Below the pieces are notes generated by a model. It ran no database searches and was not told the origin of the DNA. It was given only the letters and a program-made list of their open reading frames with translations. From Candidatus Omnitrophota bacterium (GTDB lineage: Bacteria; Omnitrophota; Gorgyraeia; 2-02-FULL-51-18), in assembly GCA_945877765.1 (NCBI GenBank), contig CAMDWQ010000008.1:13774-77773 (forward strand): 64,000 bases of DNA, read 5' to 3'. Each line of letters starts with the position of its first letter. The stretch's first letter is position 1. This document shows positions 2,674 to 59,886 of this stretch, one piece after another. Made by a program: the position numbers and the translations under genes.

Positions 2674-3804
2674 ATGTCTTCCCGTAAGCGCGACTATTAC
2701 GAAGTCCTGGGTGTGGGCCGCTCTGCGGACGCCGATGAAGTAAAAAAGGCGTTTCGCAAAGCGGCTTTAGCCCACCATCCCGACCGAAATCCAGGCGATA
2801 AAAAAGCCGAAGATAATTTCCGGGAAGCCAGCGAAGCCTACCAAGTTCTTTCCGATCCCCAAAAACGTCAGATCTACAACCAGTACGGCCATGAGGGTTT
2901 AAACGCCAATGGCGGGATGGGAGGCGGTTTTTCCTCGTCTGGTTTTGAAGATGTATTCGAGGGAATTTTTGAGGATTTCTTCGGTGGCAGCGGCGGAGGC
3001 CGAGGCCGGTCCCGTGCCGCGCGCGGCAGTGACCTTCAGTACGAGATCGAGATCTCATTTGAAGAGGCCGCTTTTGGTGTCCAGAGATCAATTGATCTAA
3101 AACGCGAAGAAACCTGCGGCAACTGCCGCGGCGAGGGCGCTAAGCCCGGTACCTCCAAAAAAACCTGTCCCACTTGTCACGGACAGGGGAAAGTTCTGAC
3201 CTCGAGCGGTTTTTTCAGCATTTCCCGTCCCTGCAGCCGTTGCAATGGCGAAGGGGTGATGATTGAACATGCTTGCAGCGTGTGTCGAGGCTCCGGCCGA
3301 GTAGTCTCCGACAGAAAAATTGAAATTAAAATTCCCCCAGGCATTGATGCCGGCCAGAGGCTTCGCATGAACGGGGAGGGCGAAGCAGGCGTGCGCGGCG
3401 GCCCTCGTGGCGACCTCTACATCGATATTCACGTCGAACCCCATGAATTTTTTAAACGCGACGGCAACAAAGTCATCTGCGCTGTCCCCATCAGTTTTGT
3501 GGAAGCCTCTCTTGGCTGTGAAATCCAAGTCCCAACACTCTCCGGCAATCACGAGCTTAAAATTCCCGCTGGCACACAAAATGGAAAAGTATTTAGACTA
3601 AAAGGGAAGGGTATCGCATCCTTGCAAGGCCATGAGTTGGGTGACCAGGAAGTCCAAATCCTCATCGAAACCCCCACACATCTTTCTGATAAACAAAAAG
3701 AGCTGCTTAAACAATTCGCCACACTTTCGAATGAAAAAGTAAACCCCATCACGTCCTCATTTATGGAAAAAGCCAAAAAACTATTCTCAAAAGAGGACAA
3801 ATAA
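2674..3804 (+). CDS. dnaJ: Co-chaperone DnaJ
   Basis: J-domain with HPD motif (HHPDRNPGD), a Gly/Phe-rich linker, and four CxxCxGxG zinc-finger repeats ([32 protein letters not shown]). Confidence 0.95.
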
Positions 3805-3806
3805 AC

Positions 3807-4085
3807 ATGCCCACCTACGAATATAAATGCCTCAAATGCAAAAAGCATTTCGATAAACTCCAAAGCATGAGCGAAAAACCACTTAAGAGCTGCATTTACT
3901 GCAAAGGCAAAGTCGAGCGCCTCATCGGCGGCGGAGCAGGACTTATCTTTAAGGGTAGTGGATTTTACATCACGGATTATAAGAATAAATCCACCTCAGG
4001 ATCAGCTTCGGACTCGAGCAAACCTAAAGAAACTAAAACGGATAGCGCGCCCGTTAAGAAAGTGGAGAAGACGGATAAGAAATAG
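3807..4085 (+). CDS. FmdB-family zinc-ribbon putative regulatory protein with a Ser/Lys-rich tail
   Basis: MPTYEYKCLKCKKHFDKLQSMSEKPLKSCIYCKGKVERLIG...KGSGFYITDY matches the FmdB/CxxC_CxxC_SSSS family consensus (YEYxCxxCG…CPxCG…GxGFY). It begins 3 nt after the dnaJ stop. Confidence 0.75.
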   Translation: MPTYEYKCLKCKKHFDKLQSMSEKPLKSCIYCKGKVERLIGGGAGLIFKGSGFYITDYKNKSTSGSASDSSKPKETKTDSAPVKKVEKTDKK

Positions 4086-4261
4086 TGTTGCGCCAGGGCC
4101 TGGCCGGGAAATCTTTTCGGGCCGGCGTTAAATTTGCCCCACCGTGGCAAATTAAACTCGGAGATGAGAGCTCGCTCGTCCCGTCTATTACGACGGGACA
4201 CCATGGCCGCTCGCCTCATCTACGCGTCCCAAAAAGATTTCCCGGCCACCCGGCGGGGTGC
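4086..4261 (+). repeat. Copy A of a ~176-bp palindromic, multi-hairpin (MITE-like) repeat
   Basis: 16-bp terminal inverted repeats GGCCGGGAAATCTTTT (4103-4118) and AAAAGATTTCCCGGCC (4232-4247). Outer arms gtgttgcgccRgggcctg and cacccggcgSggtgc. Internal hairpins ttaaatttgcc/ggcaaattaaa and gtcccgtc/gacgggac lie inside a gatgag/ctcatc stem. It is about 90% identical to the reverse complement of 5186-5363 and to 59044-59217. Confidence 0.65.
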
Positions 4262-4327
4262 GCAGTGTCACCGCAACCAAGGCTAACGAGGTCTGGCAAT
4301 ATTGTTGGAATCAAAAGGATAGATATA

Positions 4328-4990
4328 ATGACTCATCAAGAAACGCAGAAATCATTTTGTAATAGATGTAAGAATATGAATAAGCATATTGTTCGGTATA
4401 AAAAAGTTGAACATGAATCCGAAGAAATTGACGAAGGATTTTCAGTTGAATGGGCTTATACTTACTATCTTTTAGAATGCTCTGGGTGTGAAGAGTTGTC
4501 ATTTTGTAAAGAAACTTTTTGGCCAAATGAATCTGTGGACATGGAGTTTTACCCACCTCGTGTTTCTAGAAGTAAACCTATTTGGTTTGATCAATTGCCC
4601 GAAGAATACCAAGAAATCCTCTCTGAAATTTATTCAGTTCTGCATATGGATAATCGTAGACTTGCGATGATGGGCGCGCGGTGTGTCATAGATTTGTTTA
4701 TTACTCGTAAAGTTGGCGATCAAGGAAGATTTGATCTAGGTATGAAGATGCTCGAAGCAAAAGGGTACATAAGCAATAAAAATGCTATTTTTTTGAAGGC
4801 CGCTGTTGAAATAGGACACGCGTCAGCCCATCGTGGTCATAAGCCGACTATTACAAACGTTAATTCTGTCATTGATATTGTCGAAAATTTACTTCAACAA
4901 GGCGAAGTTCTATCCAATTCTGCAAAACTTCTCAAAAAATCAACTCCCAGAAGAAAGCGACTTAGCAGGCGTGCTGTTGGGAAGAATTAG
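4328..4990 (+). CDS. Hypothetical protein with an N-terminal CxxC…CxxC zinc ribbon and a C-terminal DUF4145-like domain; possible defence or horizontally acquired cargo
   Basis: ATG at 4328 is preceded by AAGGA and a gatataat box. The N-terminus has CNRC…CSGC. The C-terminal segment …MLEAKGYISNKNAIFLKAAVEIGHASAHRGH fits the DUF4145 pattern (conserved A and H, GNxAAH-like). Codon usage is markedly AT-richer than the neighbours. The track ORF 4085-4990 N-terminal extension is read-through of repeat A. Confidence 0.6.
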   Translation: MTHQETQKSFCNRCKNMNKHIVRYKKVEHESEEIDEGFSVEWAYTYYLLECSGCEELSFCKETFWPNESVDMEFYPPRVSRSKPIWFDQLPEEYQEILSEIYSVLHMDNRRLAMMGARCVIDLFITRKVGDQGRFDLGMKMLEAKGYISNKNAIFLKAAVEIGHASAHRGHKPTITNVNSVIDIVENLLQQGEVLSNSAKLLKKSTPRRKRLSRRAVGKN

Positions 4991-5185
4991 CTTTTTTATT
5001 ATATCAATTGTACATAATATCCCCGTTTGGGCAGATCGGGAAGACGTGTTGTTTCTATGTTGAGCGGAGGAATATACTCTCTTTATTCGCCAAGCGAATA
5101 AAAGCCGCTGAAAGCGGCGGCAGGGGGGCATTTTTTTTGCACGAGCCTGCCAGAGAGTGCGAGTGTATAAAAGTTCTACACAATT

Positions 5186-5363
5186 GCACCGCGCCGGGTG
5201 GCCGGGGAATCTTTTTGGGACGCGTAGATGAGGCGAGCGGCCACGGTGTCCCGTCGTAATAGACGGGACGAGCGAGCCCTCATCTATCGAGTTTATTTTG
5301 CCTGGGCGGGGCAAAATAAACGCCGGCCCGAAAAGATTCCCCGGCCAGGCCCCGGCGCAACAC
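5186..5363 (-). repeat. Copy B (inverted orientation) of the ~176-bp palindromic repeat
   Basis: Reverse complement of 4086-4261 at about 90% identity. TIRs are GGCCGGGGAATCTTTTT (5200-5216) and AAAAGATTCCCCGGCC (5331-5346). The internal hairpin is ttattttgcc/ggcaaaataa, a compensatory variant of copy A. Confidence 0.65.
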
Positions 5364-5543
5364 CTATGCCACTGCACCATCAGAGCCCCTCACTTACGTT
5401 AATCGTAAAAAATTAAGAAAATAGTTTTGACGAAAACCGGCCTTTCTGTCGTCAAGTAGGGTAGAGGGAGGTCTTCATAATGCCAATAGAAGATAACGTT
5501 ATTGCCACTTGCACAGTATACGTTAATATGGTATATTTTAAAC

Positions 5544-5837
5544 GTGATTGTTAGTTTTGGGGATCAGGCGACGGAAGATATGTTTCACGGGATGTCTTCC
5601 AAAAAGGCGTTGAGAGCGGTGCCTGTCGATCTTTGGAGAGTGTCCCAAAGAAAGCTTGATATGTTGCACGCTGCCCAGGATTTAATTGATCTGAGGGTTC
5701 CACCTAACAATCGCCTTGAGAGCTTAAGAGAGGATCTCGAAGGTTATTATTCAATACGCATTAATGTTCAGTACCGACTTATTTTTAAATGGGCACCAGG
5801 CAGTGCTTCCGAAGTGCAGATCGTTGATTATCATTAG
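5544..5837 (+). CDS. higB: HigB-like toxin (RelE/ParE superfamily, plasmid-maintenance killer protein PF05015 type)
   Basis: …IVSFGDQATEDMFHG…YYSIRINVQYRLIFKW…VQIVDYH matches the HigB-2/PF05015 consensus (SFKxKxxExLF.G … IRINxQWRxxF … IxDYH). The start is uncertain: GTG at 5544 was chosen so the protein begins at the conserved N-terminus. The track ORF begins at ATG 5502. Confidence 0.7.
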   Translation: MIVSFGDQATEDMFHGMSSKKALRAVPVDLWRVSQRKLDMLHAAQDLIDLRVPPNNRLESLREDLEGYYSIRINVQYRLIFKWAPGSASEVQIVDYH

Positions 5838-5846
5838 GAGAAACAA

Positions 5847-6119
5847 ATGATCCCGACCAATAGAAAACCCAGTCATCCCGGCGAAATACTCCTGACGGAG
5901 TTTTTGGAGCCACTCAAAATGAGCCAGTCCGAATTGGCCAAAAAAATGGGTGTGCCTATTCAGCGTGTGAATACGCTTATCAATAAAAAAAGAGGGGTGA
6001 CGGCCGAGACCGCCATTCTTCTGTCTGAAGTATTAAAAAATACCGCAGAATTTTGGATGAACCTGCAGGCTATCTACGATCTCTACGAAGCGCGCCAGAC
6101 TCTTAAGAGCGCAGCCTAA
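5847..6119 (+). CDS. higA: HigA antitoxin (XRE-family HTH)
   Basis: SHPGEILLTEFLEPLKMSQSELAKKMGVPIQRVNTLINKKRGVTAETAILLSEVL…FWMNLQAIYDL is the typical HigA HTH_XRE sequence. It lies 9 nt downstream of higB and follows an AGGAG Shine-Dalgarno sequence. Confidence 0.8.
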   Translation: MIPTNRKPSHPGEILLTEFLEPLKMSQSELAKKMGVPIQRVNTLINKKRGVTAETAILLSEVLKNTAEFWMNLQAIYDLYEARQTLKSAA

Positions 6120-6130
6120 TAAGTGACAGC

Positions 6131-6286
6131 CTAGATACGCTCAATCGTATATTTAGGGCTATTATCGGCTTGTGGAATCGCCACTTTGTTGGCACTGCGC
6201 TGGAAAGCGGAGAACCACTTGTGTAAGGATCTCACCCGTCTTTTGCGCGCCAGATTGTCTAGATCAGCTTTGGTTACCGTTGTCAT
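6131..6286 (-). CDS. Possible small ORF (51 aa, MTTVTKADLDNLARKRRVRSLHKWFSAFQRSANKVAIPQADNSPKYTIERI); speculative
   Basis: Minus-strand ATG at 6286 is preceded by AGGAG at 7-nt spacing. It lies in an otherwise unexplained 330-bp gap between higA and the DUF1015 gene. No homology was recognised. Confidence 0.2.
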   Translation of the reverse strand: MTTVTKADLDNLARKRRVRSLHKWFSAFQRSANKVAIPQADNSPKYTIERI

Positions 6287-6447
6287 TGTTTCGCTCCTAG
6301 GCCTAGTTATTTTTGATTAAAATTGCTTATAGACCAAGCATACATGAGGCTTCGAGCCAATGCAACTGTTGATAATATTTCCACCTGGTTATTTCCAGTG
6401 CTATAATAGCCACTCATTTTTTAAACGGAAGATAAGGAAGCAAATCG

Positions 6448-7722
6448 ATGCCTGAAATTAAAGCGTTTCGCGGATGGCGTTACAACCCTGCCAAGAATCA
6501 AGATCTCTCTAAAGTTTTTGCGCCACCCTATGATGTCATCTCTCCTCGTCAGCAGAAAAAATTGTACGATGAAAATCCTCACAACGTGATCCGTCTGGAG
6601 TTGGGTACGGAAGAAGCGGGTGACTCGGTGATGAACAACAAATACACTCGCGCGGCCGATTACCTTAAAGAGTGGAAGACTCAGTCCATTTTAGTCCGTG
6701 AAGACGAGCCTGCACTTTACGTGTATATTCAGGATTATCAGGAAGAGGGCAAACAAAAGACACGTCTTGGATTTTTGTCTCTGATGAAAATTGACGAAAA
6801 AGCCGTATTGAAGCACGAGAATACACTTGCTGCCCCCAAAGAAGACCGCTTAAAGCTTTTGCGGGCCACACGTACCAATCTTAGCCCGATCTTTGGACTC
6901 TTTGAAGACAATAAAAAAGTCGTAAACTCTTTTCTTAAAAAAACAATGAGTCTTAAGCCGTTTGCCGATGTGACAATTGATGGCGTGCGTCACCGGCTTT
7001 TTATCGAGACGCGTGGAAATGTGTTGGCGGGGATTGAGAAAGCCATGAAGGGCAAGACCATGTACATCGCCGATGGGCATCACCGTTTTGAAACTGCTTG
7101 CAACTTTAAAAAAGAAGCAGGCACCAAAGGTCTTGCGGGTCCCGGCTACGTGATGACGTATTTTGCTGACTGTTACAACAACCCCTTTAAAATTTTTCCC
7201 ACACACCGCCTCATTAAAATTAAAGACGTGAAGAACTGGGAAAAGCTGGCAAAAATCGGAACGCATGAAAAAGTAAAAGATTTAAACACGCTGCTTAAGC
7301 ATTTAGAGGACTATCGTGAGGATGTACCGGGCAAGCCCTACGAATTTGGTTTTTATGCCAAAGGCCATGGTTTTCATCTTTTTAAAATGAACAAAGCCAC
7401 CGCCAAAAAAGTCAAAAACAATCCCGTCGACCGTCTGGATGTGGCGGTGCTCCACCAGTTCATCATTGACCCTTGTTTTGGAATTAAAAAAATCGAGAAA
7501 TCCGAACAAATTGATTTTACGCGCTCCCCCGAAGATGCGGTTGCCCGCGTGGATCACGGGTTGTTTGACGCAGCTTTATTTTTGAGGCCGACATCCCTTA
7601 AGGAAATGATACTTGCCTCGAAAAAAGGCTTAAAGATGCCGCAGAAATCGACCTATTTTTATCCCAAACTTCTATCGGGCCTGGTGTTTCACAGCTTTGA
7701 GGATGGGATTCAAAACCAATGA
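6448..7722 (+). CDS. DUF1015-family protein
   Basis: The N-terminus MPEIKAFRGWRYNP…VFAPPYDVISPRQQKKLYDENPHNVIRLEL matches the characteristic DUF1015 signature (I.PF.G.RY……APPYDVI). Confidence 0.75.
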   Translation: MPEIKAFRGWRYNPAKNQDLSKVFAPPYDVISPRQQKKLYDENPHNVIRLELGTEEAGDSVMNNKYTRAADYLKEWKTQSILVREDEPALYVYIQDYQEEGKQKTRLGFLSLMKIDEKAVLKHENTLAAPKEDRLKLLRATRTNLSPIFGLFEDNKKVVNSFLKKTMSLKPFADVTIDGVRHRLFIETRGNVLAGIEKAMKGKTMYIADGHHRFETACNFKKEAGTKGLAGPGYVMTYFADCYNNPFKIFPTHRLIKIKDVKNWEKLAKIGTHEKVKDLNTLLKHLEDYREDVPGKPYEFGFYAKGHGFHLFKMNKATAKKVKNNPVDRLDVAVLHQFIIDPCFGIKKIEKSEQIDFTRSPEDAVARVDHGLFDAALFLRPTSLKEMILASKKGLKMPQKSTYFYPKLLSGLVFHSFEDGIQNQ

Positions 7723-23234: not shown

Positions 23235-23792
23235 ATGAATAATTCAAAACGGTTAAAAATACTCATGGAATCCGGAAGATCGATATTCACGCCTTTGGAC
23301 TTGCGTCTGTTGTGGGGGATGAGTGAGTCGAGCGCCAAGATGAGCGCTGTGCGAATGGTGGAAAAAGGTCTTATGATAAGGCTGGCCGCCGGCTATTATG
23401 CCCTGAATCAACGGTATAATCCGCACGAGCTTGCCAACCGGCTGGCGGCGCCTTCCTACGTTTCGTTTCAGGCTGCCCTTTTTCAAGCGGGGGTTAATTT
23501 TCAAGCGCGCCGGGAGATTGGTTCCGTGGCGACACGCAATCACAAAAAGAAAGTGGGGGAAGTGATTTATACCTATACTGCGATGAAGAAGGAGTTGTTT
23601 TTCAATGGGGAGGGCGTGGTAACCCGTGAAGGCGTTTCTATCGCGCTTCCCGAGCGCGCGATCCTTGACAGTTTTTACTTCGGCTATTTACCGGATATTG
23701 ACGATGCTGGAAAATTAAATAAAACTCTTTTGGCGAAATTAAGCGCCTTGTATCCCAAGACTGTCCAAAAGAAGGCAGAAAAACTCTTATGA
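23235..23792 (+). CDS. AbiEi-family antitoxin/transcriptional regulator (type IV TA / abortive infection)
   Basis: N-terminal wHTH-like region (SIFTPLDLRLLWGMSESSAKMSAVRMVEKGLMIRLAAGYYAL) resembling AbiEi. The AbiEii gene follows with a 4-nt overlap. Confidence 0.65.
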   Translation: MNNSKRLKILMESGRSIFTPLDLRLLWGMSESSAKMSAVRMVEKGLMIRLAAGYYALNQRYNPHELANRLAAPSYVSFQAALFQAGVNFQARREIGSVATRNHKKKVGEVIYTYTAMKKELFFNGEGVVTREGVSIALPERAILDSFYFGYLPDIDDAGKLNKTLLAKLSALYPKTVQKKAEKLL

Positions 23793-24475
23793 GCCGCTTG
23801 TTCGAATGGGACAGGCATAAAAGGTATCTTGCGCTTTTACTGACGGAGCTGGCCAAAGCCTTTCCCGAGAAGATTGCGTTTAAAGGTGGCACCTGCGCTT
23901 ATTTTTTTTATAATCTCCCGCGATTCTCATTTGATCTGGATTTTGACATGATACGGGCATTCAAGGCTATGGATGCCGATCTATTCCGTGAGATTGTGGC
24001 AAAGCATGGACAAGCGAGAAATTTTTATGACAAGGCAAACACATTGTTTTGTCTTTTTGATTACGGAAAAGATAATCCCAATATCAAAATCGAGCTGAAT
24101 AAGCGCGTGTGGAAAAACAACGTTTATAAGCTGGTCTGGTTTATGGGCGTGCCGGTTTCTATCGCGGATGAAACGACTGTTTTGACCAATAAGCTGGTCG
24201 CGCTCATGGACCGCAAAACCGCAGTCGCAAGAGATTTATACGATAGCTGGTATTTTTTAAAGGCGGGATTTCCGGTCCATGACGCCCTGGTCTTGGAGCG
24301 CACCGGCCGGGATACCCGGACCTATTTGAGAGAAGTCGCCGCGTTTATTAAGAAAACCTATACGTCCCGTAACGTGTTGCACGGGCTGGGTGACGCGCTC
24401 GATGAAAAACAGAAGGCTTGGGCGAAGGAGTATCTTGTTTCAGAGACAATACAGGAGATCACCAGGCGTGCATAA
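23789..24475 (+). CDS. AbiEii/AbiGii-family nucleotidyltransferase toxin
   Basis: IAFKGGTCAYFFYNLPRFSFDLDFDM matches the AbiEii/DUF1814 nucleotidyltransferase motif (FKGGTAL…R.SxDLDF). Confidence 0.8.
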   Translation: MSRLFEWDRHKRYLALLLTELAKAFPEKIAFKGGTCAYFFYNLPRFSFDLDFDMIRAFKAMDADLFREIVAKHGQARNFYDKANTLFCLFDYGKDNPNIKIELNKRVWKNNVYKLVWFMGVPVSIADETTVLTNKLVALMDRKTAVARDLYDSWYFLKAGFPVHDALVLERTGRDTRTYLREVAAFIKKTYTSRNVLHGLGDALDEKQKAWAKEYLVSETIQEITRRA

Positions 24476-24578
24476 TTGTCCTATGCAGAGATCTATCGAA
24501 CTCTCCAAAGCACTCTTGACATCGCTAAAGCCATCGAGTAAAATTACTCATAGTAGTGAGTAATTTTAGGAGGCTGTT

Positions 24579-25760
24579 ATGTACCAGCGAAGTATGACCC
24601 AAGTGATTCGCAAGCGATTGTCGGAAAAAAGACGCTTTATTCAAGTGATTTTAGGACCCCGCCAGGTAGGTAAAACCACGGCTATTCAACAGGTGTTAGA
24701 GGCGATTGGTGTCCCGTCCCAGTATGCGGCGGCGGATCTTCCTGCTCCTCCTGATACGGGCTGGATAGCCAGGCAGTGGGATATTGCGCGGATGAAAGCT
24801 AGTGAAGGAAAGACCGCTGTTCTTGTTTTGGATGAAATTCAGAAAGTCTCGCATTGGTCGAGCGAAGTTAAGCGTTTGTGGGATGAGGATAGCCAGGCAC
24901 GCCGCTCCATTCAGGTAGTGCTTTTGGGGTCGTCCTCTTTGCTTATTCAAAAAGGTTTAAGTGAAAGCCTAGCGGGACGATTTGAACTTATTCGCTTTCC
25001 TCATTGGTCATGGATTGAAATGAAAGAGTGTTTTAGCCTGTCTTTGGAGCAGTATATCTATTTTGGAGGGTATCCCGCATCGGCATCCTTGATGCAGGAT
25101 GAAAATCGCTGGGGGCAGTATCTGCGTGATTCCTTGATCGAAACGGCCCTATCCAAGGACATTCTTCTTTTAAACCGCGTTGAAAAACCCATTTTATTGA
25201 GACAGTTGTTTGTCTTGGCGTGCGAGTACAGCGGGCAGATTTTGTCCTATCAGAAGATTCTGGGCCAATTGCAGGACGTGGGCAACACCGTGACGGTGGC
25301 GCATTACCAAAGGCTTTTGGAGGCCGCTTTTCTTATCAAAGGATTGCAAAAATGGTCAGGCCAAACAATTCGTTCAAGAAGTTCGAGTCCTAAATGGCTT
25401 GCTTTGAATTCCGGTCTCGTCAGCGCTCTCTCTAACCGTACTTTTGATGAGTGGCGTCAAGATCCGGCCCAATGGGGAAGACTCGTGGAAACCAGCGTTG
25501 GCGCTCATTTGGCCAATCAAGGCGTCATCGAGGGGATCGAGGTGTATTATTGTCGGGAAGGCAATCACGAGGTTGATTTTGTCCTGCGCAAAGGTTCTAC
25601 CTTAACGGCGATTGAGGTAAAAAGCGGACAGAAGCGGATCGAATCCAAGGGCCTGTCTAAATTCAAAGAGCATTACCCTCGCGCCAAGACGCTGGTCGTG
25701 GGAACCGGAGGAATGACAACCAAGGATTTTTTTGAACACCCTATCACCAAATTAGTTTGA
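24579..25760 (+). CDS. AAA+ ATPase (COG1373, AAA_14 + DUF4143) with a C-terminal PD-(D/E)xK nuclease-like motif
   Basis: Walker A GPRQVGKTT and Walker B VLVLDEIQ. The C-terminal …HEVDFVLRKGSTLTAIEVKSGQ shows the D…E.K arrangement of restriction-endonuclease-fold domains. The gene stands alone, flanked by intergenic gaps. Confidence 0.8.
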   Translation: MYQRSMTQVIRKRLSEKRRFIQVILGPRQVGKTTAIQQVLEAIGVPSQYAAADLPAPPDTGWIARQWDIARMKASEGKTAVLVLDEIQKVSHWSSEVKRLWDEDSQARRSIQVVLLGSSSLLIQKGLSESLAGRFELIRFPHWSWIEMKECFSLSLEQYIYFGGYPASASLMQDENRWGQYLRDSLIETALSKDILLLNRVEKPILLRQLFVLACEYSGQILSYQKILGQLQDVGNTVTVAHYQRLLEAAFLIKGLQKWSGQTIRSRSSSPKWLALNSGLVSALSNRTFDEWRQDPAQWGRLVETSVGAHLANQGVIEGIEVYYCREGNHEVDFVLRKGSTLTAIEVKSGQKRIESKGLSKFKEHYPRAKTLVVGTGGMTTKDFFEHPITKLV

Positions 25761-30857: not shown

Positions 30858-30922
30858 AGCAGTCAACTGCATTCTAATATCATGCTTGACAAACATCATG
30901 TTTGAAGAGCATCATTATAGCT

Positions 30923-32236
30923 ATGAAACATACTTCATTGTTTTGGAACCGCCAAGCTGAGATTCAGTTTATTCAAAGCCGCCTGCGGCGCGGAGGCCTT
31001 GGTTACCTGACGGGTCGTCGTCGTATCGGTAAGACGGCGCTTCTGAAGAGGATCTGCAGTCAATGGAATGGGCTATACCATCAAGCCGTAGAGGGGACTC
31101 CGGATCAGCAGCTCTTGCATCTGTGTGAGGAGTGGTCTGCAAGGATCCCTATTTTGGGCGAGATTCGCCCGCGGTCTTGGGGTGAATTTTTTAAACTGAT
31201 TTCAACGCAAAAGCTTCCAAAGTTGATCGTGCTTGATGAGTTTCCGTATTGGACCGCCGCTGACCCTGGATTTGCCAGCCATTTTCAAAAATGGGTGGAT
31301 CATCATCTGCCGTCCTTGAAGTGTTTGGTTCTGGTCTCGGGCTCATCGCAATCGATGCTGGATTCTCATTTCTTGGGCCGTCAGGCTGCGCTCTTCGGAA
31401 GAAGCATCTTTCATTTAAGAATCAAGCCGATGAGTTACCGATGGTTTTGCAAGGCTTTAGGTTTCTCGGCTCAAGATCCTCAATCATTCACGCGCTTTAC
31501 GATGGTTGGCGGAGTGCCGCATTATTGGAAGCTGATTCATTCTGCGTCGGTGCTCGAACAAGCCGATGAGCTTTATTTTAATTCTTCCGCTATGTTGACC
31601 GATGAGCCTTCTTCCTGGCTTCGCGATGAGGGGATTTCCGGCCATCTTTCTAAGGCGGCGCTGGACTTGGTTGGGCGAGGTGTGCGCAAGCCTAGTGAAT
31701 TGGCATCGCGCTTAGCCGTGCCGCAGGGAAATCTATCAAGACCGCTTTCTGTGCTTCTGGAGCTTGGGTTTATGCGCCGCGAATTGCCGTTCGGAGAGTC
31801 CTCGAGATCGACCAAAAAGGTACTGTATAACATCGAAGATCCAGCATTATCTTTTTATTATGGGACTTACTTGCCTCACAGAGCACTATGGGCGACGTAT
31901 CCAGCGGCGAAGAAAATGCAGATTTTAGAGCTTCATGCGTCCGGGCACTGGGAAAATTTATGCCGGCGATCCTTTGCAGGTTCCAATCGGTATTGGAGCG
32001 GTAAATCTGAGATTGACCTAGTCGCGCCCTTGCCTGACCCTAAAGAGGGCTATCTCGTGGGAGAATGCAAATGGGCCTGGGTGGATAAGAAAGTAGAATC
32101 AAGGCTTTTGGAGGACTTAAAAACTCGATTTGAGCCCACTGAGCTTGGACAAACGCTCAAGAAAAAATACCCCATTACCTATCGGATTTTTTCAAAAAAA
32201 GATCTTTCGACCACCGCTAACCTGGAGAAGTCGTGA
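30923..32236 (+). CDS. AAA+ ATPase (COG1672, ATPase_2 + DUF234) with a C-terminal PD-(D/E)xK nuclease-like motif
   Basis: Walker A GRRRIGKTA and Walker B LIVLDEFPY. A wHTH-like segment is followed by …SEIDLVAPLPDPKEGYLVGECKWAW (D…E.K). The start is uncertain: TTG at 30902 or ATG at 30923. Confidence 0.75.
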   Translation: MKHTSLFWNRQAEIQFIQSRLRRGGLGYLTGRRRIGKTALLKRICSQWNGLYHQAVEGTPDQQLLHLCEEWSARIPILGEIRPRSWGEFFKLISTQKLPKLIVLDEFPYWTAADPGFASHFQKWVDHHLPSLKCLVLVSGSSQSMLDSHFLGRQAALFGRSIFHLRIKPMSYRWFCKALGFSAQDPQSFTRFTMVGGVPHYWKLIHSASVLEQADELYFNSSAMLTDEPSSWLRDEGISGHLSKAALDLVGRGVRKPSELASRLAVPQGNLSRPLSVLLELGFMRRELPFGESSRSTKKVLYNIEDPALSFYYGTYLPHRALWATYPAAKKMQILELHASGHWENLCRRSFAGSNRYWSGKSEIDLVAPLPDPKEGYLVGECKWAWVDKKVESRLLEDLKTRFEPTELGQTLKKKYPITYRIFSKKDLSTTANLEKS

Positions 32237-41908: not shown

Positions 41909-41981
41909 GTCATTCCCGAATGTTTTAATCGGGAATCAAACCGATACATGATCCCCGATAAAAAATTTCGGGGATGACATT
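41909..41981 (+). promoter_or_regulatory. Copy 1 of a 73-nt double-hairpin motif
   Basis: gtcATTCCCGAatgttttaaTCGGGAATcaaaccgatacatgATCCCCGAtaaaaaattTCGGGGATgacatt. It lies 27 nt after the gatB stop and ends 3 nt before the deacetylase ATG. It has the same architecture as 56130-56202, but with the two stem sequences exchanged between hairpins. Confidence 0.5.
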
Positions 41982-50697: not shown

Positions 50698-51759
50698 GTG
50701 CGTTTTTTAAAAAAAATCGAGGAGAAAGTCGCCCGCTTCAAAGAAGTGGAGCGGCTTCTCCAAGATCCATCCGTCACCTCTGAGCCCTCTCGGGTCAAGG
50801 ACCTCGGCAAAGAATTTCGCGGTCTTGAAAAAATCAACAATCTCTATAATGAGTATTTAAAAGTGCACGCCGAGATTGAAGAAGTGCGCCATCTTTTAAA
50901 TGATAAAACTCAAAGCGCTGATCTTATTTCAATGGCGTCGCTTGAAGCCGAGTCCCTGGCAGTGCGTGAAAAAAAAGCCATTGGAGACATCGAGGCCCTC
51001 TTGATGCAGGAAGACCCTCTTTTAATTAAAAACGTGATCATGGAAATCCGCGCGGGAACCGGGGGGCTTGAGGCGGGGCTTTTTGCCGGCGATTTGTTGC
51101 GCATGTACTCGCGATTTTCTGCCAAATGTGGTTTTAAAATCGAAGTTCTTTCTCTTTCCCCCAACGATGCGGGTGGTCTCAAGGAAGTGATAGCGTCCGT
51201 CACGGGTGCCGGCGCTTACGGTAAATTTAAATATGAAAGTGGCACTCACCGCGTCCAACGCGTCCCGGCAACCGAGGCTTCCGGCCGTATCCACACCTCT
51301 GCTGTCACCGTGGCTATTTTACCGGAAGCCGAAGAAGTGGATGTGGAAATTAAACCCGAAGACCTTCGCATTGACGTCTTTCGTTCTGGCGGACCTGGCG
51401 GTCAGAGTGTGAATACAACCGATTCGGCGGTCCGTATTACGCACATCCCTTCCGGACTTGTGGTGAGCTGTCAGGATGAAAAATCCCAATTAAAAAACAA
51501 GCAAAAGGGGATGAAGATTCTTCGCGCTCGTCTTTTTGAAAAAATTACCAATGAGCGCAATGCCGAAATCGCTAAGAATCGCAAAGAGCAAGTTGGTTCC
51601 GGCGACCGTAGTGAAAAAATCCGCACTTACAATTTTCCCGACCGCCGCGTCACCGATCACCGCGTAGGTTTTACCTCGCACAACCTAGAAGCCGTGCTAG
51701 AGGGCGATCTTGAGGGTTTTGTGAATGCGCTTTTTGAGGACGAGCTTGCCAGGAGTTGA
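50698..51759 (+). CDS. prfA: Peptide chain release factor 1
   Basis: GGQ motif (GGPGGQSVNTTDSAVRITHIPSG) and the PxT-type tripeptide (PAT) of RF1. GTG start. Confidence 0.9.
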   Translation: MRFLKKIEEKVARFKEVERLLQDPSVTSEPSRVKDLGKEFRGLEKINNLYNEYLKVHAEIEEVRHLLNDKTQSADLISMASLEAESLAVREKKAIGDIEALLMQEDPLLIKNVIMEIRAGTGGLEAGLFAGDLLRMYSRFSAKCGFKIEVLSLSPNDAGGLKEVIASVTGAGAYGKFKYESGTHRVQRVPATEASGRIHTSAVTVAILPEAEEVDVEIKPEDLRIDVFRSGGPGGQSVNTTDSAVRITHIPSGLVVSCQDEKSQLKNKQKGMKILRARLFEKITNERNAEIAKNRKEQVGSGDRSEKIRTYNFPDRRVTDHRVGFTSHNLEAVLEGDLEGFVNALFEDELARS

Positions 51760-52711
51760 TAGCTTGTTGCAAGCGGCTCGTGATAACGCAGCCTACCTGC
51801 TTAAAATCAAAAGAAGCTTATCCCTTAAAAAAATCATGTCCCCGGCTGTTGAGGCCCAAATCCTCATTTTCCATTTTTCAAAAATAAACCGTATCGATTT
51901 TTTGACCGGCACCAAAATACCTTCGCTGCCACAGAAAAAGAAGATTGAGCAGGCTCTGCAAAAAAGGCTAACGGGGATTCCTGCCGCTTATTTGACAGAA
52001 ACTGCCGGGTTCTACGGACATGATTTTTTAGTGAACCCCTCTGTCTTAATCCCCCGGCCTGAAACCGAGCTTTTGGTGGAGCAAACACTAAAAATTTTAA
52101 ATCAGGTGCCACAGGGGTCAGACCCCTCTGGCACCAAAGCTGCCAAATCCTTGTTTTCTCCTAGGGGTCAGAGGGGTCAGACCCCTCTGGCACCGGAGGT
52201 TCTTGAGATTGGGACGGGGTCGGGGTGTATTGCCGTCAGTTTGACAATCGCAAGGCCAGACTGTAGAATGACGGCTCTTGATATTTCGAGCGAAGCGCTT
52301 AAAACCGCCCGTAGAAACGCCCGTCAGCATGGGGTGGCTGGGCGGATTTCTTTTGTTAAGAGCGATTTATTTTCAGTTTTTGGGCCTCGGCATCGCGGTC
52401 GTTGGGATATTTTAGTATCCAATCCACCCTATGTTCCCCGAAGTGATTTTCGAAATTTGCAGCGCGAAGTGAAGAAAGAGCCGCGCCTGGCGTTGGATGG
52501 CGGTAAAAGCGGTTTAGTGGTGATTGAGAAAATTCTCAAGGAAGCGCCGTATTATCTAAAAAATGGCGGCTATATTCTTCTAGAAATCGGGAAGGGCCAG
52601 TCGCGGGCATTAGGTAAGATGGCGACCCAGATGAAGTTCTTTCAAAGTTTAAAGTTTGTCAAAGATTACGCGGGAATTGACCGCTTTTTAGTCGCGAGGA
52701 AAATTGGATAA
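51725..52711 (+). CDS. prmC: Release factor glutamine methyltransferase PrmC (HemK) carrying a repeat-derived in-frame insertion
   Basis: The NPPY motif (LVSNPPYVP) and SAM motif I (VLEIGTGSGCI). The N-terminal region is about 50 aa longer than usual because of the 52114-52194 segment. It overlaps the prfA end by 35 nt. Confidence 0.8.
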   Translation: MRFLRTSLPGVDSLLQAARDNAAYLLKIKRSLSLKKIMSPAVEAQILIFHFSKINRIDFLTGTKIPSLPQKKKIEQALQKRLTGIPAAYLTETAGFYGHDFLVNPSVLIPRPETELLVEQTLKILNQVPQGSDPSGTKAAKSLFSPRGQRGQTPLAPEVLEIGTGSGCIAVSLTIARPDCRMTALDISSEALKTARRNARQHGVAGRISFVKSDLFSVFGPRHRGRWDILVSNPPYVPRSDFRNLQREVKKEPRLALDGGKSGLVVIEKILKEAPYYLKNGGYILLEIGKGQSRALGKMATQMKFFQSLKFVKDYAGIDRFLVARKIG

Positions 52712-53972
52712 GCTAGTCATTGAAGGCGGCAGAAGACTTGAGGGCACCGTAGAAATTTCGGGCGCCAAGAACTCGTCTCTGCCAATTTTGGCCGCAACTG
52801 TTCTTTCTAAAGAAAAATCCATCATTCGCAATGTTCCGCAAGTAGCGGACGTTTTCACGATGGTGAAAATTTTAAAGTCGCTGGGAGCTAAAGTGCTCCA
52901 TACCGGCAATACGGTGGAAGTTGATCCATCGGGGATTCGTAACCCCGTTTTGACTTACAAAATTGTCAGCACGATGCGCGGTTCGATTTGTTTTTTGGGG
53001 CCGCTTTTGGCGCGTTTCCGCTCCGCTCAGATTTCTTTTCCCGGAGGCTGCGTGATTGGACCGCGGCCGATTGATTTGCACATCAAAGGTGTTAAGGCGC
53101 TGGGTGCAGACATCACGTTGGAACATGGTTATGTACTTGCCAAAACCAAAGAACTGAAGGGGACGCGTATTTATTTGGGAGGCGCCTTTGGTTCGAGCGT
53201 TCTAGGTACAGGCAACGTGATGATGGCAGCCACTATGGCCAAAGGTAAGACCGTTATCGTGAACGCCGCCTGCGAGCCTGAGGTCGTGGACCTGGGTAAT
53301 TTTTTGAAAAAAATGGGAGCCAAGATTTCGGGTCTAGGATCTCCTTCGATTGAAATTGAAGGAGTGAAGAAATTAAGCGGCGCAAATTATTCGATTATTC
53401 CTGACCGCATTGAAGCTGGTACGTATATGATTGCCGCCGCTATTACCAAGGGCGATGTGACGATTAAAAATTTTGATTTGAGTTTGCTGGGTGCGATGTT
53501 GGACAAGATGAGAGATGCCGGCGTCTCGATTACTGAAAAAAATGGGCACGTGCGTGTGCGTCGTGAGAAAAAGCTTAAGCCTATCTCGGTGACGACACTG
53601 CCGTATCCTGGCTATCCGACGGATTTGCAGGCGCAGATGATGGCGCTCATGTGCGTGGTTCCGGGAATCAGCGTCATTACCGAGAAAATTTATCCTGAAC
53701 GGTTTATGCACGTAAGTGAATTAAATCGTATGGGGGCTAGCATTATTTTGGAGGGTCCCAGCGCGATTGTCAGCGGGAATAAAAAGTTGAGCGGAGCCCC
53801 TGTGATGGCGTCGGACTTGCGCGCGAGCGCGGGGCTGGTGGTTGCGGGCCTTGTGGCCGAAGGGACAACGGAAATATCTCGTATTTATCATTTGGACCGC
53901 GGGTATGAAAATTTAGTAGCGAAGCTTCAGCACTTAGGAGCTAAAATTCGCCGGGAAAAGGATTTACGGTGA
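52704..53972 (+). CDS. murA: UDP-N-acetylglucosamine 1-carboxyvinyltransferase
   Basis: MDKLVIEGGRRLEGTVEISGAKNSSLPILAATVL…, the catalytic Cys loop (…STMRGSICFLGPLLAR) and EPT-fold repeats. Confidence 0.95.
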   Translation: MDKLVIEGGRRLEGTVEISGAKNSSLPILAATVLSKEKSIIRNVPQVADVFTMVKILKSLGAKVLHTGNTVEVDPSGIRNPVLTYKIVSTMRGSICFLGPLLARFRSAQISFPGGCVIGPRPIDLHIKGVKALGADITLEHGYVLAKTKELKGTRIYLGGAFGSSVLGTGNVMMAATMAKGKTVIVNAACEPEVVDLGNFLKKMGAKISGLGSPSIEIEGVKKLSGANYSIIPDRIEAGTYMIAAAITKGDVTIKNFDLSLLGAMLDKMRDAGVSITEKNGHVRVRREKKLKPISVTTLPYPGYPTDLQAQMMALMCVVPGISVITEKIYPERFMHVSELNRMGASIILEGPSAIVSGNKKLSGAPVMASDLRASAGLVVAGLVAEGTTEISRIYHLDRGYENLVAKLQHLGAKIRREKDLR

Positions 53973-54030
53973 TAAATTCGAAGCGCGAAATTCGAAATCC
54001 GAAACAAATTCGAATTTTCGAAAATTCAAT

Positions 54031-54130
54031 AACCAAAACAACTGTTTCGAATTTTGATATTCGAATTTCGAATTTGTTTAACCATAACAACTGTTTCGAA
54101 TTTCGATATTCGAATTTCGAATTTTGTTTT
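54031..54130 (+). repeat. Tandem ~50-bp direct repeat (2 units) rich in palindromic TTCGAA motifs
   Basis: Unit 1 (54031-54079) is aaccaaaacaactgtttcgaattttgatattcgaatttcgaatttgttt. Unit 2 (54080-54130) is aaccataacaactgtttcgaatttcgatattcgaatttcgaattttgtttt. The flanking 53977-54030 is also ATTCGAA-rich and includes the perfect 12-mer palindrome aaattcgaattt. Confidence 0.5.
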
Positions 54131-54421: not shown

Positions 54422-55123
54422 TTGAAAATACACGCGCTAACGCTTTTTCCAGGAATGTTTGACTCGTTTGTGTCGCATTCAATTATCAAAAGAGCCTTGG
54501 AAAGTAAGAAAGTGTCGATCACAGCGCATAACCTGCGCGATTGGTCACAGGACAAGCACAAGACGTGTGACGACAAGCCGTTTGGTGGCGGTCCTGGAAT
54601 GCTGATGAAGCCCGAGCCTATTTTTGAGGCTTATGACGCCTTGTTCGGGAAGAAAAAGAGCAAAGATTTTCGCTTTATTTACGTCTCTGCTCAAGGCAAG
54701 CGATTTGATCATCAAAAAGCCAAGGAATTGGCCTCTTGTAAAGAGATCGCTTTTTTATGCGGGCATTATGAGGGGGTTGATCAGAGGGTTGTTGATGAGT
54801 TGGTGACCGATGAAATCTCCATCGGCGATTACGTATTGACTGGAGGCGAGCTTCCTGCAATGGTGATCATCGATGCGGTGGTAAGGCTGCTGCCTGGAGT
54901 GGTCGGTTGCGCCCAATCAACAGAATTTGAATCTTTTACCCAAAATCTGCTAGAATACCCCCAGTATACAAGACCTGCCGTCTACCGGGGGCTTAAGGTC
55001 CCTGCGTTGCTTTTATCAGGGAATCACCAAAAGATAAAGGAATGGCAAAAGAGCGAAGCGCTTAAGCGAACGTTTGAGCGGCGCCCTGATTTATTAAATT
55101 TGAAAACGAAAAAAGGAAAATAG
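54422..55123 (+). CDS. trmD: tRNA (guanine37-N1)-methyltransferase
   Basis: [13 protein letters not shown]…[11 protein letters not shown]…[23 protein letters not shown] is the SPOUT-fold TrmD signature. Confidence 0.9.
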
Positions 55124-55536: not shown

Positions 55537-56149
55537 TCTTGATTATTTAAATCAGGGATTTAAATCCCTGGCGGGCGTGGATGAAGCGGGGCGCGGGCCA
55601 TTGGCCGGTCCTGTAGTTGCTTCAGCCGTGATCGTCAGGGATTTTTCATTTTTTTCAACGGTCAATGACTCGAAGAAAATGACGGCGAAAGCGCGCGAAC
55701 GCGCCTATGAAGAAATTTTGACAAAATGTGTGGTGGGAATCGGAATTATTGATTGCCATACGATTGATAGAATTGATATTTATCAAGCCACGCTTCGAGC
55801 GATGGAAGAGGCGGTGATGAAGCTTGGCGAGGTGCCGGACGTCATCTTGGTGGACGGGCCCAAAACGCCAAATTTGCCGTTTAGGCAGGTGCCGATTGTG
55901 GATGGGGACGCCATCTCATTTTCGATTGCCTGCGCGTCCGTGGTGGCGAAAGTCACGCGTGACCGCATGATGGAACATTACGCCGAAGAATTTCCGCAGT
56001 ACGGTTTTGAGAAGCACAAAGGTTATGGGACCAAGAGCCATATGGAAGCAATCAAGAAAAATGGTCCCTGCAAAATTCACCGCAGGAGTTTTGAGCCGAT
56101 AAAGTCTTTAATAAAACAGGGGGCCAACTGTCATCCCCGAAATCTTTAA
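55469..56149 (+). CDS. rnhB: Ribonuclease HII
   Basis: [21 protein letters not shown]…DSKKM…VDGPKTP are RNase HII catalytic motifs. TTG 55469 was chosen, about 32 aa upstream of GVDEAGRG. The track's 55349 start would overlap rplS by 188 nt. The last 7 codons overlap hairpin 1 of the double-hairpin motif. Confidence 0.8.
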
Positions 56150-56202
56150 TCGGGGATCAAACTTAGGAATGATTCCCGATAAAAAAATTCGGGAATGACA
56201 TT
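56130..56202 (+). promoter_or_regulatory. Copy 2 of the 73-nt double-hairpin motif
   Basis: gtcATCCCCGAaatctttaaTCGGGGATcaaacttaggaatgATTCCCGAtaaaaaaatTCGGGAATgacatt. It spans the rnhB stop (56147-49) and ends 9 nt before the guaA ATG. Relative to copy 1, the ATCCCCGA and ATTCCCGA stems are exchanged between hairpin 1 and hairpin 2. Confidence 0.5.
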
Positions 56203-57811: not shown

Positions 57812-58057
57812 ATGGAACATTTAAGTATTACGTTTCCCGTGGATCTGCGCAAAGAGGTAGACCGTTGCGCTAAGCTTGAGCACACCAAAAGGAGCACCCT
57901 GATCCAGAAAGCGGTGAAGGTGTATCTGGGTCTTAAATACAGGGCTCAACTTGAGCAAGATCTGAAAGCGGGATATCTTGAGATGGCGGGCGAGTCTCAA
58001 AACTTGATGGACGAATTCAAAAATATCGATGCAGAGTCTTGGAAGTATGCCGGTTAA
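57812..58057 (+). CDS. Ribbon-helix-helix (CopG-like) antitoxin
   Basis: 81 aa. The N-terminal beta-strand and helix pattern (HLSITFPVDLRKEVDRCAKLEHTKRSTLIQKAVKVYL) is typical of RHH antitoxins. It overlaps the downstream PemK/MazF toxin gene. Confidence 0.7.
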   Translation: MEHLSITFPVDLRKEVDRCAKLEHTKRSTLIQKAVKVYLGLKYRAQLEQDLKAGYLEMAGESQNLMDEFKNIDAESWKYAG

Positions 58058-59043: not shown

Positions 59044-59217
59044 GTGTTGCGCCGGGGCCTGATCGGTAAATCTTTTCGGGCCAGCGCTCTTTTGCCCCTC
59101 CGAGGCAAAATTCGCTCTAAAGACAAGCTCGCTCGTCCCGCTATAAAGAACGGGACTCCATGGCCGCTCGCTTGTCTAAGCGTCCCAAAAAGATTTCCCG
59201 CTCACCCGGCGCGGTGC
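59044..59217 (+). repeat. Copy C of the ~176-bp palindromic (MITE-like) repeat
   Basis: gtgttgcgccggggcctg…atcttttcggg…cttttgcc-cctccg-aggcaaaa…gtcccgc-tataaagaa-cgggac…gcgtcccaaaaagatttcccgctcacccggcgcggtgc. It is in the same orientation as copy A. Its internal hairpins carry compensatory changes. Confidence 0.65.
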
Positions 59218-59369
59218 TACGCTTTCCATAGCCTCACCCCAAGTTAATCGATATACAAATTCCTGAAAATAATCCTGACGAAAAGTAGGTTCTCTGTCGT
59301 CCTGTAGAGTAGATATGGAGGACTATATAATATGGCTAGAAATATGTATAAAAGTATGGTATTATTTCC

Positions 59370-59651
59370 ATGGAAGTAGTATCAGGTAGTTTTTGTTGGG
59401 ATGAATTCAAAGAGGACCAGAATATCTTGAAGCATGATGTTTGTTTTATCGCGGCTTCGAAAGCATTTTTCGACCCAAGTTGTTCGGTATTCAAAGATGA
59501 TGCGCATAGTTCGGTAGAAGAAAGATGGTTTTGTATTGGGATGGTCGATGGCAGGCCGATGACCGTTCGGTTTACTTATCGCGACCAGAGGATTCGTATT
59601 ATTGGAGCAGGCTACTGGAGAAGCAGAAGGAGGTATTATTATGAAAAATGA
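59370..59651 (+). CDS. brnT: BrnT toxin (DUF497 ribonuclease)
   Basis: FCWDEFKEDQNILKHDVCFIAASKAFFDP…DDAHSSVEERWFCIGMVDGRPMTVRFTYRDQRIRIIGAGYW matches the BrnT/DUF497 pattern (FEWDxxKxxxNxxKHGVxFxEA…DxxHSxxEER…G……RIISAR). Confidence 0.75.
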   Translation: MEVVSGSFCWDEFKEDQNILKHDVCFIAASKAFFDPSCSVFKDDAHSSVEERWFCIGMVDGRPMTVRFTYRDQRIRIIGAGYWRSRRRYYYEK

Positions 59652-59886
59652 AATTTTTGATGAGAATATGCCCCATGGGAAGCTTACGAGGGTTGAGAAT
59701 TTTTTGCCGCCGCCGAGTGAATTGATCATGCCTGAACAGCCGGTGAAAGTCACGATGATACTGAATAAACCCATCGTTGATTTCTTTAAACAGCAGGCGC
59801 ATCGGCATCACACCAAATATCAGCGGATGATACGTGAAGTGCTTGGGCAATATATGAATCAATACAAAGATCCGAAGGCAGCCTAA
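59641..59886 (+). CDS. brnA: BrnA antitoxin (RHH-containing)
   Basis: ATG 59641 follows GAAGGAGG. …VKVTMILNKPIVDFFKQQAHRHHTKYQRMIREVLGQYM matches BrnA (…IRLDxDVLDWFKxxGxGYQTxINxxLRxYM). It overlaps the brnT stop by 11 nt. Confidence 0.7.
   Translation: MKNEIFDENMPHGKLTRVENFLPPPSELIMPEQPVKVTMILNKPIVDFFKQQAHRHHTKYQRMIREVLGQYMNQYKDPKAA

Follow-up and report, generated by a model that had tools for sequence, protein, structure and literature searches.

A RAZR-like zinc-ribbon/DUF4145 gene between inverted foldback repeats in a variable slot of an Omnitrophota genome

PD-T7-4 of Escherichia coli UMB1727, also called RAZR (ring-activated zinc-finger RNase), joins a Zn finger to a DUF4145/HEPN domain (PMC13017515). 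It is an abortive-infection RNase: the zinc-finger domains bind phage portal or Gp77 rings, the HEPN domain cleaves single-stranded RNA, and residues R146 and H154 are essential (PMC13017515). The system consists of a single gene (CDS 34-694 of its contig) for a "Zn finger-HEPN" protein of about 220 aa (PMC9519451 supplement) and is reported to be among the most frequent defense systems in sedentary chromosomal integrons (bioRxiv 10.1101/2024.07.02.601686). DUF4145 had been assigned to the HEPN superfamily in 2013, when zinc-ribbon fusions were also noted (PMC3710099). Here, we analyzed a 64,000-nt stretch of a Candidatus Omnitrophota genome (GenBank assembly GCA_945877765.1; contig CAMDWQ010000008.1, positions 13,774 to 77,773; hereafter the window). 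Near its start, a gene for a zinc-ribbon/DUF4145 protein lies between two inverted copies (units A and B) of a structured repeat, with a third copy (unit C) farther along (Table 1). Our best explanation, to which we give a probability of roughly 0.55, is a divergent RAZR-like defense gene in a variable slot, bracketed by an inverted, lineage-specific foldback repeat that resembles miniature inverted-repeat transposable elements (MITEs) or enterobacterial repetitive intergenic consensus (ERIC) elements. We regard the gene as a novel, divergent form within a defense family that was characterized only recently, and the repeat as an addition to a familiar class of structured intergenic repeats.

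Short inverted repeats around a defense gene are a known theme. MITE-flanked composites include integron mobilization units, the MITE-bracketed class 1 integrons of Enterobacter and Acinetobacter, and Tn3-derived inverted-repeat miniature elements (TIMEs), and they come with target-site duplications and identifiable parent transposon families. The Omnitrophota locus resembles them in having two inverted copies of a short, noncoding, inverted-repeat-bounded sequence around a cargo with no internal transposase. Unlike them, it has no duplication or evidence of movement, and no parent element was found in the window. ERIC elements (also called intergenic repeat units, IRU), the Correia elements of Neisseria, and repetitive extragenic palindromic sequences and bacterial interspersed mosaic elements (REP/BIME) are structured intergenic repeats that are cotranscribed as stable RNA hairpins. 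The copies retain a common structure and can affect how stable or how strongly expressed an mRNA is. Our units likewise fall among imperfect palindromes of 100 to 180 bp that are apparently dispersed, intergenic, and located beside genes. They differ from the ERIC, Correia, and REP types in showing no sequence similarity to them, in forming a three-way junction instead of a simple hairpin, and in lacking the Correia-type TA duplication.

The gene between units A and B encodes a protein with a zinc ribbon and a DUF4145 domain (Pfam; residues 99 to 186, E = 2.8e-10), as an earlier note made from the sequence had proposed; its length is 220 aa, not the 221 aa given there. Residues 6 to 75 form beta-ribbon strands in the AlphaFold2 model. 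In an alignment of 44 homologues (40 to 56% identity), the zinc-ribbon cysteines C11, C14, C51, and C54 are invariant. The linker PPRVSRxKPxW is invariant or nearly so (P76, P77, R81, P84, and W86), and the invariant features of the alignment as a whole are HCNxC...CxGC, PPRxSRxxPxW, MMGAR, GxAxxHRG, and a TPxR basic tail. The N-terminal Cys4 zinc ribbon, conserved linker, and C-terminal DUF4145 domain with a HEPN fold correspond to the layout of RAZR. So do the stand-alone gene of about 220 codons with no co-oriented partner between the units, its foreign composition, and its position in a variable slot.

The protein database contained 222 full-length relatives (about 215 to 250 aa) scattered over Proteobacteria and metagenomes. 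The closest (P0002) is 56% identical and is encoded on an 896-nt contig that breaks near the gene on both sides. Another relative (P0014; 49% identical to the window protein) occurs as a cassette in three different integron-type arrays, in which attC-like repeats stand between small co-oriented genes and the neighbors include AbiJ, AbiTii, PIN, Cap4 nuclease, and AadA_C. A third (P0003) is located in a defense island, between NYN and DUF1156/GmrSD/DUF499 genes. The three P0014 arrays (L031 5345-8836, L032 729-3650, and L033 1524-5292) carry attC-like ...CTAACAA...GTTA... sequences, and in all of them the P0014 gene is followed by a gene of family PF24838 (8xMP; 209 to 232 aa), with which it may form a conserved two-cassette pair.

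The window protein was compared with RAZR by way of an Enterobacter kobei plasmid protein. The PADLOC profile for PD-T7-4 (PDLC04109) matches this protein (E = 2e-5), which has the R-x7-H spacing of RAZR with R200 as the arginine. By hhalign, the family of the window protein aligned with the E. kobei protein over the full length (99.45% probability; E = 4.7e-22; 208 columns). The alignment paired Val160 with R200, H168 with the histidine, and R169 with a serine. Three points weigh against the RAZR part of our interpretation. First, the position eight residues before H168, occupied in RAZR by R146 of the R-x7-H motif, is Val160 in the window protein and V, I, or L across the family. Second, the PD-T7-4 profile did not match the window protein or 43 homologues at E ≤ 10. 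Third, the link to RAZR is transitive, since the comparison runs through the E. kobei bridge protein and is not direct. The window protein also differs from RAZR in its Omnitrophota host and in an invariant arginine (R169) directly after the invariant H168 ("AHRG"). This "AHRG" variant is also present in Yersinia pestis pMT-type, Citrobacter, and Enterobacter cloacae plasmid proteins, and the PD-T7-4 profile matches the Y. pestis protein at E = 0.009. With the canonical arginine replaced and the His-Arg pair invariant, catalysis, if kept, would use a rearranged site. We file the window protein as a divergent sister clade of RAZR with a rearranged putative active site, not as a RAZR orthologue.

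The Yersinia gene is a zinc-ribbon/DUF4145 "AHRG" gene found on a Y. pestis pMT plasmid (L038 2983-3705) and in 48 other Yersinia plasmid records. It is flanked by IS100, IS256, and IS1618 transposase genes, and its match to the PD-T7-4 model is marginal.

The valine at the catalytic arginine position and the failure of the PD-T7-4 model to match the clade also favor another explanation, in which the protein is not an active defense RNase but has the zinc-ribbon/HEPN fold in a catalytically dead form or one put to another use, such as that of a decoy or of a regulator that binds nucleic acids. The HEPN motif is conserved in only about 80% of DUF4145 proteins (PMC3710099), which fits such a loss. 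However, H168, R169, R118, and other polar residues are invariant in the 44 homologues, suggesting a preserved active site. The "AHRG" motif moreover recurs on plasmids of Yersinia, Citrobacter, and Enterobacter, and the contexts of the clade are defense islands and integron cassettes. We consider an inactive protein unlikely. Judging by homology and context, the product of the window gene is probably an abortive-infection RNase.

By analogy with RAZR, the zinc-ribbon domain would sense the assembly of a phage protein, and dimers or oligomers of the HEPN domain would cut RNA and so abort infection. The inverted unit pair marks the borders of the module; the gene may have been mobilized as a composite, or the copies may have arrived or been duplicated separately. 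If the assignment is right, the zinc-ribbon/HEPN (RAZR-type) family of single-gene immunity extends to Omnitrophota, an uncultivated phylum. It would also include a sister clade that is widespread and numbers more than 200 sequences, the Yersinia pMT-type plasmid genes among them, in which the HEPN arginine is replaced and the His-Arg dyad is invariant. This clade raises a testable question about HEPN catalysis and about the reach of the ring-sensing mechanism.

The gene stands out by composition. Its GC content (37.6%) and GC at third codon positions (GC3; 29.9%) are the lowest in the window, making it the clearest outlier of the 32 genes measured, and the description of a single AT-rich gene between the units was confirmed. 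Core genes have a GC3 of 0.49 to 0.58 (about 52%); a GC3 of 0.30 against about 0.52 marks the gene as foreign. The low-GC stretch stops at units A and B. We read it as a horizontally acquired, stand-alone gene. The hairpin and T8 tract reported on its 3' side are present. On the plus strand, about 12 nt separate the stem from the T-run, which makes for a poor terminator; on the minus strand, the hairpin is directly followed by TTTTATT. It would thus serve as a weak and perhaps bidirectional terminator beyond the coding sequence.

The genes upstream of unit A are grpE, dnaK, dnaJ, and an fmdB-type zinc-ribbon gene, and those downstream of unit B are higB and higA. In relatives with DnaJ identities of 69 to 78%, the backbone reads miaA-hflX-hrcA-grpE-dnaK-dnaJ-fmdB-X-DUF1015-GT2-accD-ABC-GGDEF, where X differs in each. 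At X, L036 has VanZ, the P0128 contig encodes a protein of 1639 aa, L034 has an epimerase-like gene, and the window carries unit A, the DUF4145 gene, unit B, and higBA. The hrcA-grpE-dnaK-dnaJ-fmdB block is kept in all three relatives, and the DUF1015 synteny on the right side of the slot is kept in L036 and the P0128 contig. Neither a unit nor higBA was found at the slot in these relatives. Since the slot content differs in each relative and the units are absent there, the entire 4085-6447 segment, higBA included, is accessory. It is lineage-specific DNA in a recombination-prone slot between the fmdB block and the DUF1015 gene. An insertion between fmdB and higBA had been proposed; the left border holds, but higBA itself belongs to the slot content and the right border is the DUF1015 gene.

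Exact matches of its proteins place the window in a metagenome-assembled genome (GCA_947444795.1) and in several assemblies of that species from ENA and Logan, with which we compared it. Those DnaJ homologues that carry names come from Candidatus Omnitrophota. All conspecific contigs either had the identical arrangement or ended inside or next to unit A, B, or C. Such ends, seen in many assemblies, are expected of a multicopy repeat in short-read assemblies. Searches for exact matches to FmdB, HigA, DUF1015, and the product of the glycine-zipper gene next to unit C yielded no empty-site allele among the conspecific contigs. The conspecifics differed from the window by 14 to 19 single nucleotide polymorphisms (depending on the assembly) clustered at 3791-4231 (the 3' end of dnaJ, fmdB, and unit A), with none in the 1.2 kb before the cluster and none from 4232 to 6500 (2.3 kb after it). 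The cluster suggests a recombination tract from a diverged strain, with unit A already present in the tract.

Units A and B are 92.1% identical when inverted (164/178, one gap; BLASTN E = 1e-70), close to the first estimate of about 90%. Unit A starts at 4085 rather than 4086, its first base being the G of the fmdB TAG stop codon. Unit C, which the earlier note had missed, is 81% identical to A, has the orientation of A, and is located about 54 kb from the slot. The units are short (174 to 178 bp), noncoding, and bounded by terminal inverted arms of 24 to 33 bp, with a GC content of 59 to 63%; an indel makes the reading frames differ between copies. The earlier note had correctly recognized terminal inverted repeats but understated them at 16 bp. 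A repeat search gave inner arms of 24 nt with 92% complementarity in each unit (TGGCCGGGAAATCTTTTCGGGCCG / CGTCCCAAAAAGATTTCCCGGCCA), and the closing stem reaches about 33 bp once the outer helix is counted. The ends read GTGTTGCGCC...GGCGYGGTGC, and the identical "left" ends of A and B face outwards. Each of the three units is directly upstream of a toxin- or defense-type module: the DUF4145 gene, higBA, and brnTA, respectively. A covariance model built from A, B, and C detected no fourth copy in the window. The repeat is a small, apparently dispersed family, previously undescribed and lineage specific. The unit is best read as a nonautonomous MITE/ERIC/Correia-like element bordering accessory toxin or defense modules.

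Units B and C share more than their own sequence. Roughly 100 nt following B, ahead of higB, match those following C, ahead of brnT, at about 70% identity (P < 0.002). Both leaders contain a GACGA...TCGTC hairpin, a GGAGG motif, and a small upstream open reading frame (uORF) that runs across the start codon of the toxin gene in a different frame (15 codons, at 59332-59379, in the brnTA leader). higBA and brnTA are unrelated toxin-antitoxin families, and B and C are oppositely oriented to the common leader. The shared leader suggests that the two operons have a promoter or translational-coupling module in common, which may be mobile. The opposite orientations are compatible with a DNA element that is roughly symmetric, or with separate insertions at a favored target. 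A box common to the flanks of all three units was rejected, as the flank of unit A is unrelated (P = 0.5 to 0.8) and only those of B and C are alike.

The fold of the unit is under selection. Minimum free energies of -72 to -112 kcal/mol correspond to z scores of -4.6 to -9.1 against shuffled sequences. The consensus is a three-way junction in which the closing stem leads to two further arms, a 12-bp hairpin whose 7-nt loop is rich in C and a compound hairpin. Among A, B, and C, 7 of 67 pairs changed on both sides, compared with 2.3 ± 1.2 in shuffles (none of 500 reached 7) and none in slid registers. These compensatory changes are spread over four helices, and unit C differs compensatorily from A and B. 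As for a putative RNA strand, the G-U pattern slightly favors A+/B-/C+, whereas the minimum free energies favor the opposite strand.

Relatives of the unit were sought in several collections. Rfam 15 gave no match at gathering thresholds over the window and none at E ≤ 10 over 3950-5600. Neither the segment nor the unit had relatives in phage DNA, plasmid DNA collections, or viral contigs. When 185,579 reference genomes were searched with a 21-mer from the arm, no genuine copy emerged; the sole match, in a member of the Planctomycetia (L015), was a 27-nt partial one inside a recG-like open reading frame (ORF) and was attributed to chance. Six-frame peptides of the unit, used as protein queries, had no match, and the unit's own ORFs were likewise not recovered. 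The only nonself HMMER match of the ORF over unit B (P0245) was a Pro/Arg-rich minisatellite ORF on a 38-Mb eukaryotic contig, a compositional false positive. A two-arm pattern search of metagenomes returned several AATCTTTTTGGG motifs beside a primase-like ORF (L016) that did not have the unit architecture.

The same search, made in JGI metagenomes, yielded one credible look-alike on a contig from an unrelated metagenome (Ga0209515_10012611; L017 237-373). It has in common with the unit the AATCTTTTCGGG/CCCAAAAAGATT core, the C/T arm asymmetry, and the bulge. It folds unaided into a first hairpin of 10 to 13 bp with a C-rich loop and a compound second hairpin, and the hairpin sequences are unrelated to those of the unit. 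The covariance model scored it at 19 bits (E of about 0.03), with both arms preselected by the search pattern. Given the marginal score and the preselection, L017 is a suggestive, not a proven, relative. Downstream of the element are a promoter-like site and an ORF of 120 aa that matches no Pfam family, and an NYN gene and a MazE-type toxin-antitoxin pair are nearby.

Several of these results count against the MITE part of our interpretation. The ends of A, B, and C lack any consistent direct repeat of ≥3 nt such as target-site duplication would leave. There is no transposase in the A-B segment, as had been stated before, nor anywhere in the window, where no parent element was found either. 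All conspecific contigs spanning the sites carry the units, with no presence/absence polymorphism. The documented copies number three, all within 64 kb, and the arm sequence did not recur in the reference genomes. Finally, the compensatory changes and the L017 look-alike are easier to reconcile with a structured element that has a function than with a selfish repeat in decay. What stands of the original MITE-like label is that the repeats are short, noncoding, bounded by inverted repeats, and dispersed, with a third copy in the window; the compensatory fold and L017 are not predicted by a plain decaying MITE.

The mobility tests bear equally on the proposal of the earlier note that a MITE-pair composite moved with its cargo. 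In its strict form, A and B would be the ends of one composite transposon that brought in the DUF4145 gene in a single event, with the transposase elsewhere acting in trans. The identical, outward-facing ends of the inverted units would fit this, as would the higher similarity between A and B (92%) than to C (81%) and the foreign, low-GC cargo bounded by the units without an internal transposase. The P0002 contig that breaks near the gene on both sides is suggestive only. However, no direct repeat longer than 2 nt flanks the A-B composite (there is just a 2-nt TA coincidence), and a second copy of it was found neither in the collections searched nor in conspecific assemblies, where empty sites and, in the 64-kb window, transposases are likewise lacking. 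Gene conversion between nearby inverted copies explains the A-B similarity equally well. Unit C is solo and beside different cargo, and B and C are equidistant from a common leader, which suggests that the unit-leader junction matters rather than the A-B pair. We judge a single-event composite improbable. Of the "small mobile defense module" that had been suspected, the foreign gene, the variable slot, the RAZR-like protein, and the homologues in integrons and defense islands are borne out; the movement of the pair with its cargo is not.

The fold, in turn, raises the possibility that the unit has a function as a structured nucleic acid. It could be a recombination site (attC-like or foldback) at which a recombinase inserts accessory cassettes and which sets their limits, or a structured RNA (a UTR element or small RNA) controlling the adjacent toxin or defense genes. 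All three units (3/3) are directly upstream of toxin or defense modules, compensatory changes keep the fold in four helices, and the L017 look-alike is also upstream of a small gene in a toxin-antitoxin/NYN neighborhood. The cargo homologues are classic integron cassettes, and, as in integrons, structured imperfect palindromes separate small accessory, toxin-antitoxin, or defense modules. On the other hand, an attC or integron reading of the units was rejected: the core sites RYYYAAC...GTTRRRY (R''/R') are absent, A and B are inverted to each other, and the window has no integrase, recombinase, or intI. Unlike attC sites, the units are also longer and upstream, not downstream, of genes; true attC-like repeats were seen only around the P0014 homologue. 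The inversion of A and B and the opposite orientation of B and C to the leader argue against both a strand-specific cis-RNA and integron-type insertion. No Rfam family matched even at E ≤ 10, no consistent promoter or terminator was found around the units, and the L017 match is marginal with preselected arms. The AbiE (23235-24475), DUF4143 ATPase, and MazEF islets of the window are without a unit. We regard a functional element of this kind as quite unlikely and prefer the MITE/ERIC-like reading. A broader version, in which the unit is a foldback recombination site or structured RNA that marks accessory toxin and defense cassettes and helps to install them in Omnitrophota and perhaps, given L017, in other uncultivated lineages, is very unlikely. 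If true, it would mean a cassette system resembling integrons but built on another kind of site and an unknown recombinase, here carrying a RAZR-like nuclease with a rearranged HEPN site. If the unit is systematically tied to accessory cassettes, it would be a new vehicle or regulator for the exchange of defense genes; if it has no such tie, it is an ordinary lineage-specific MITE or ERIC-like repeat.

Table 1. Features of the variable slot and of the unit C locus (positions in the 64,000-nt window)
Feature	Position	Strand	Description
fmdB-type zinc-ribbon gene	3807..4085	+	Pfam Zn_ribbon_8, E = 1.7e-14; left border of the slot, last gene of the conserved hrcA-grpE-dnaK-dnaJ-fmdB block
Unit A	4085..4261	+	177-nt foldback, GC 61%, closing stem and two internal hairpins; covariance model 199 bits
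Cys4 zinc-ribbon + linker + DUF4145/HEPN gene ("AHRG" variant)	4328..4990	+	ORF, 220 aa; sole ORF between the units
Hairpin GCCGCTGAAAGCGGC and T8 tract	5104..5138	.	Hairpin 5104-5118, T8 5131-5138; z only -1.6, not individually significant
Unit B	5186..5363	-	178-nt copy, inverted relative to A; covariance model 210 bits on the minus strand
higBA leader	5380..5554	+	TTGACGA...TCGTCAA hairpin, GGAGG, 24-codon uORF (5480-5554) overlapping the higB start
higB/higA toxin-antitoxin genes	5544..6119	+	higB (GTG start) 5544-5837, start set from the Pfam alignment offset; higA 5847-6119; HigB-like_toxin E = 1.4e-18, HTH_3 E = 8.6e-10
DUF1015 gene	6448..7722	+	Pfam DUF1015, E = 1.6e-77; right border of the slot, where the backbone resumes
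Unit C	59044..59217	+	Third copy, covariance model 174 bits; between the terminator of a glycine-zipper gene and brnTA
brnTA leader, brnT, and brnA	59232..59886	+	brnT 59370-59651 (BrnT_toxin E = 1.9e-20); brnA about 59641-59886 (weak BrnA/CopG matches)

Other small accessory islets are located among the core, co-oriented genes of the window, at 23235-25760, 30902-32236, and 57812-58391. They contain an AbiEi-like/AbiEii pair (23235-24475), a DUF4143 AAA ATPase, an ATPase_2/DUF234 protein, and a MazE/PemK pair. A covariance model scan of the window found no 176-nt unit at these islets.

The window also holds repeats of other kinds. A second, unrelated dispersed repeat occurs at 41909-41981 (after gatB) and 56130-56202 (before guaA); it is a 73-nt AT-rich double palindrome (GTCATYCCCGAA...TTCGGGRATGAC) whose two intergenic copies are 82% identical and REP-like or terminator-like. 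At 52103-52196, a palindrome of about 29 nt (GGTGCCAGAGGGGTCTGACCCC) occurs twice in inverted orientation and so forms a 94-nt foldback. This foldback is within the prmC ORF (51725-52711), where it separates the part for the PrmC_N domain from that for the methyltransferase domain; a repeat element may have been inserted there in frame. Finally, an AT-rich unit of 46 to 49 nt (TAACCAWAACAACTGTTTCGAATTT...) is tandemly duplicated at 54030-54124 (96% identity), in the gap between an EPSP_synthase-family gene (52704-53972) and trmD (54422-55123).

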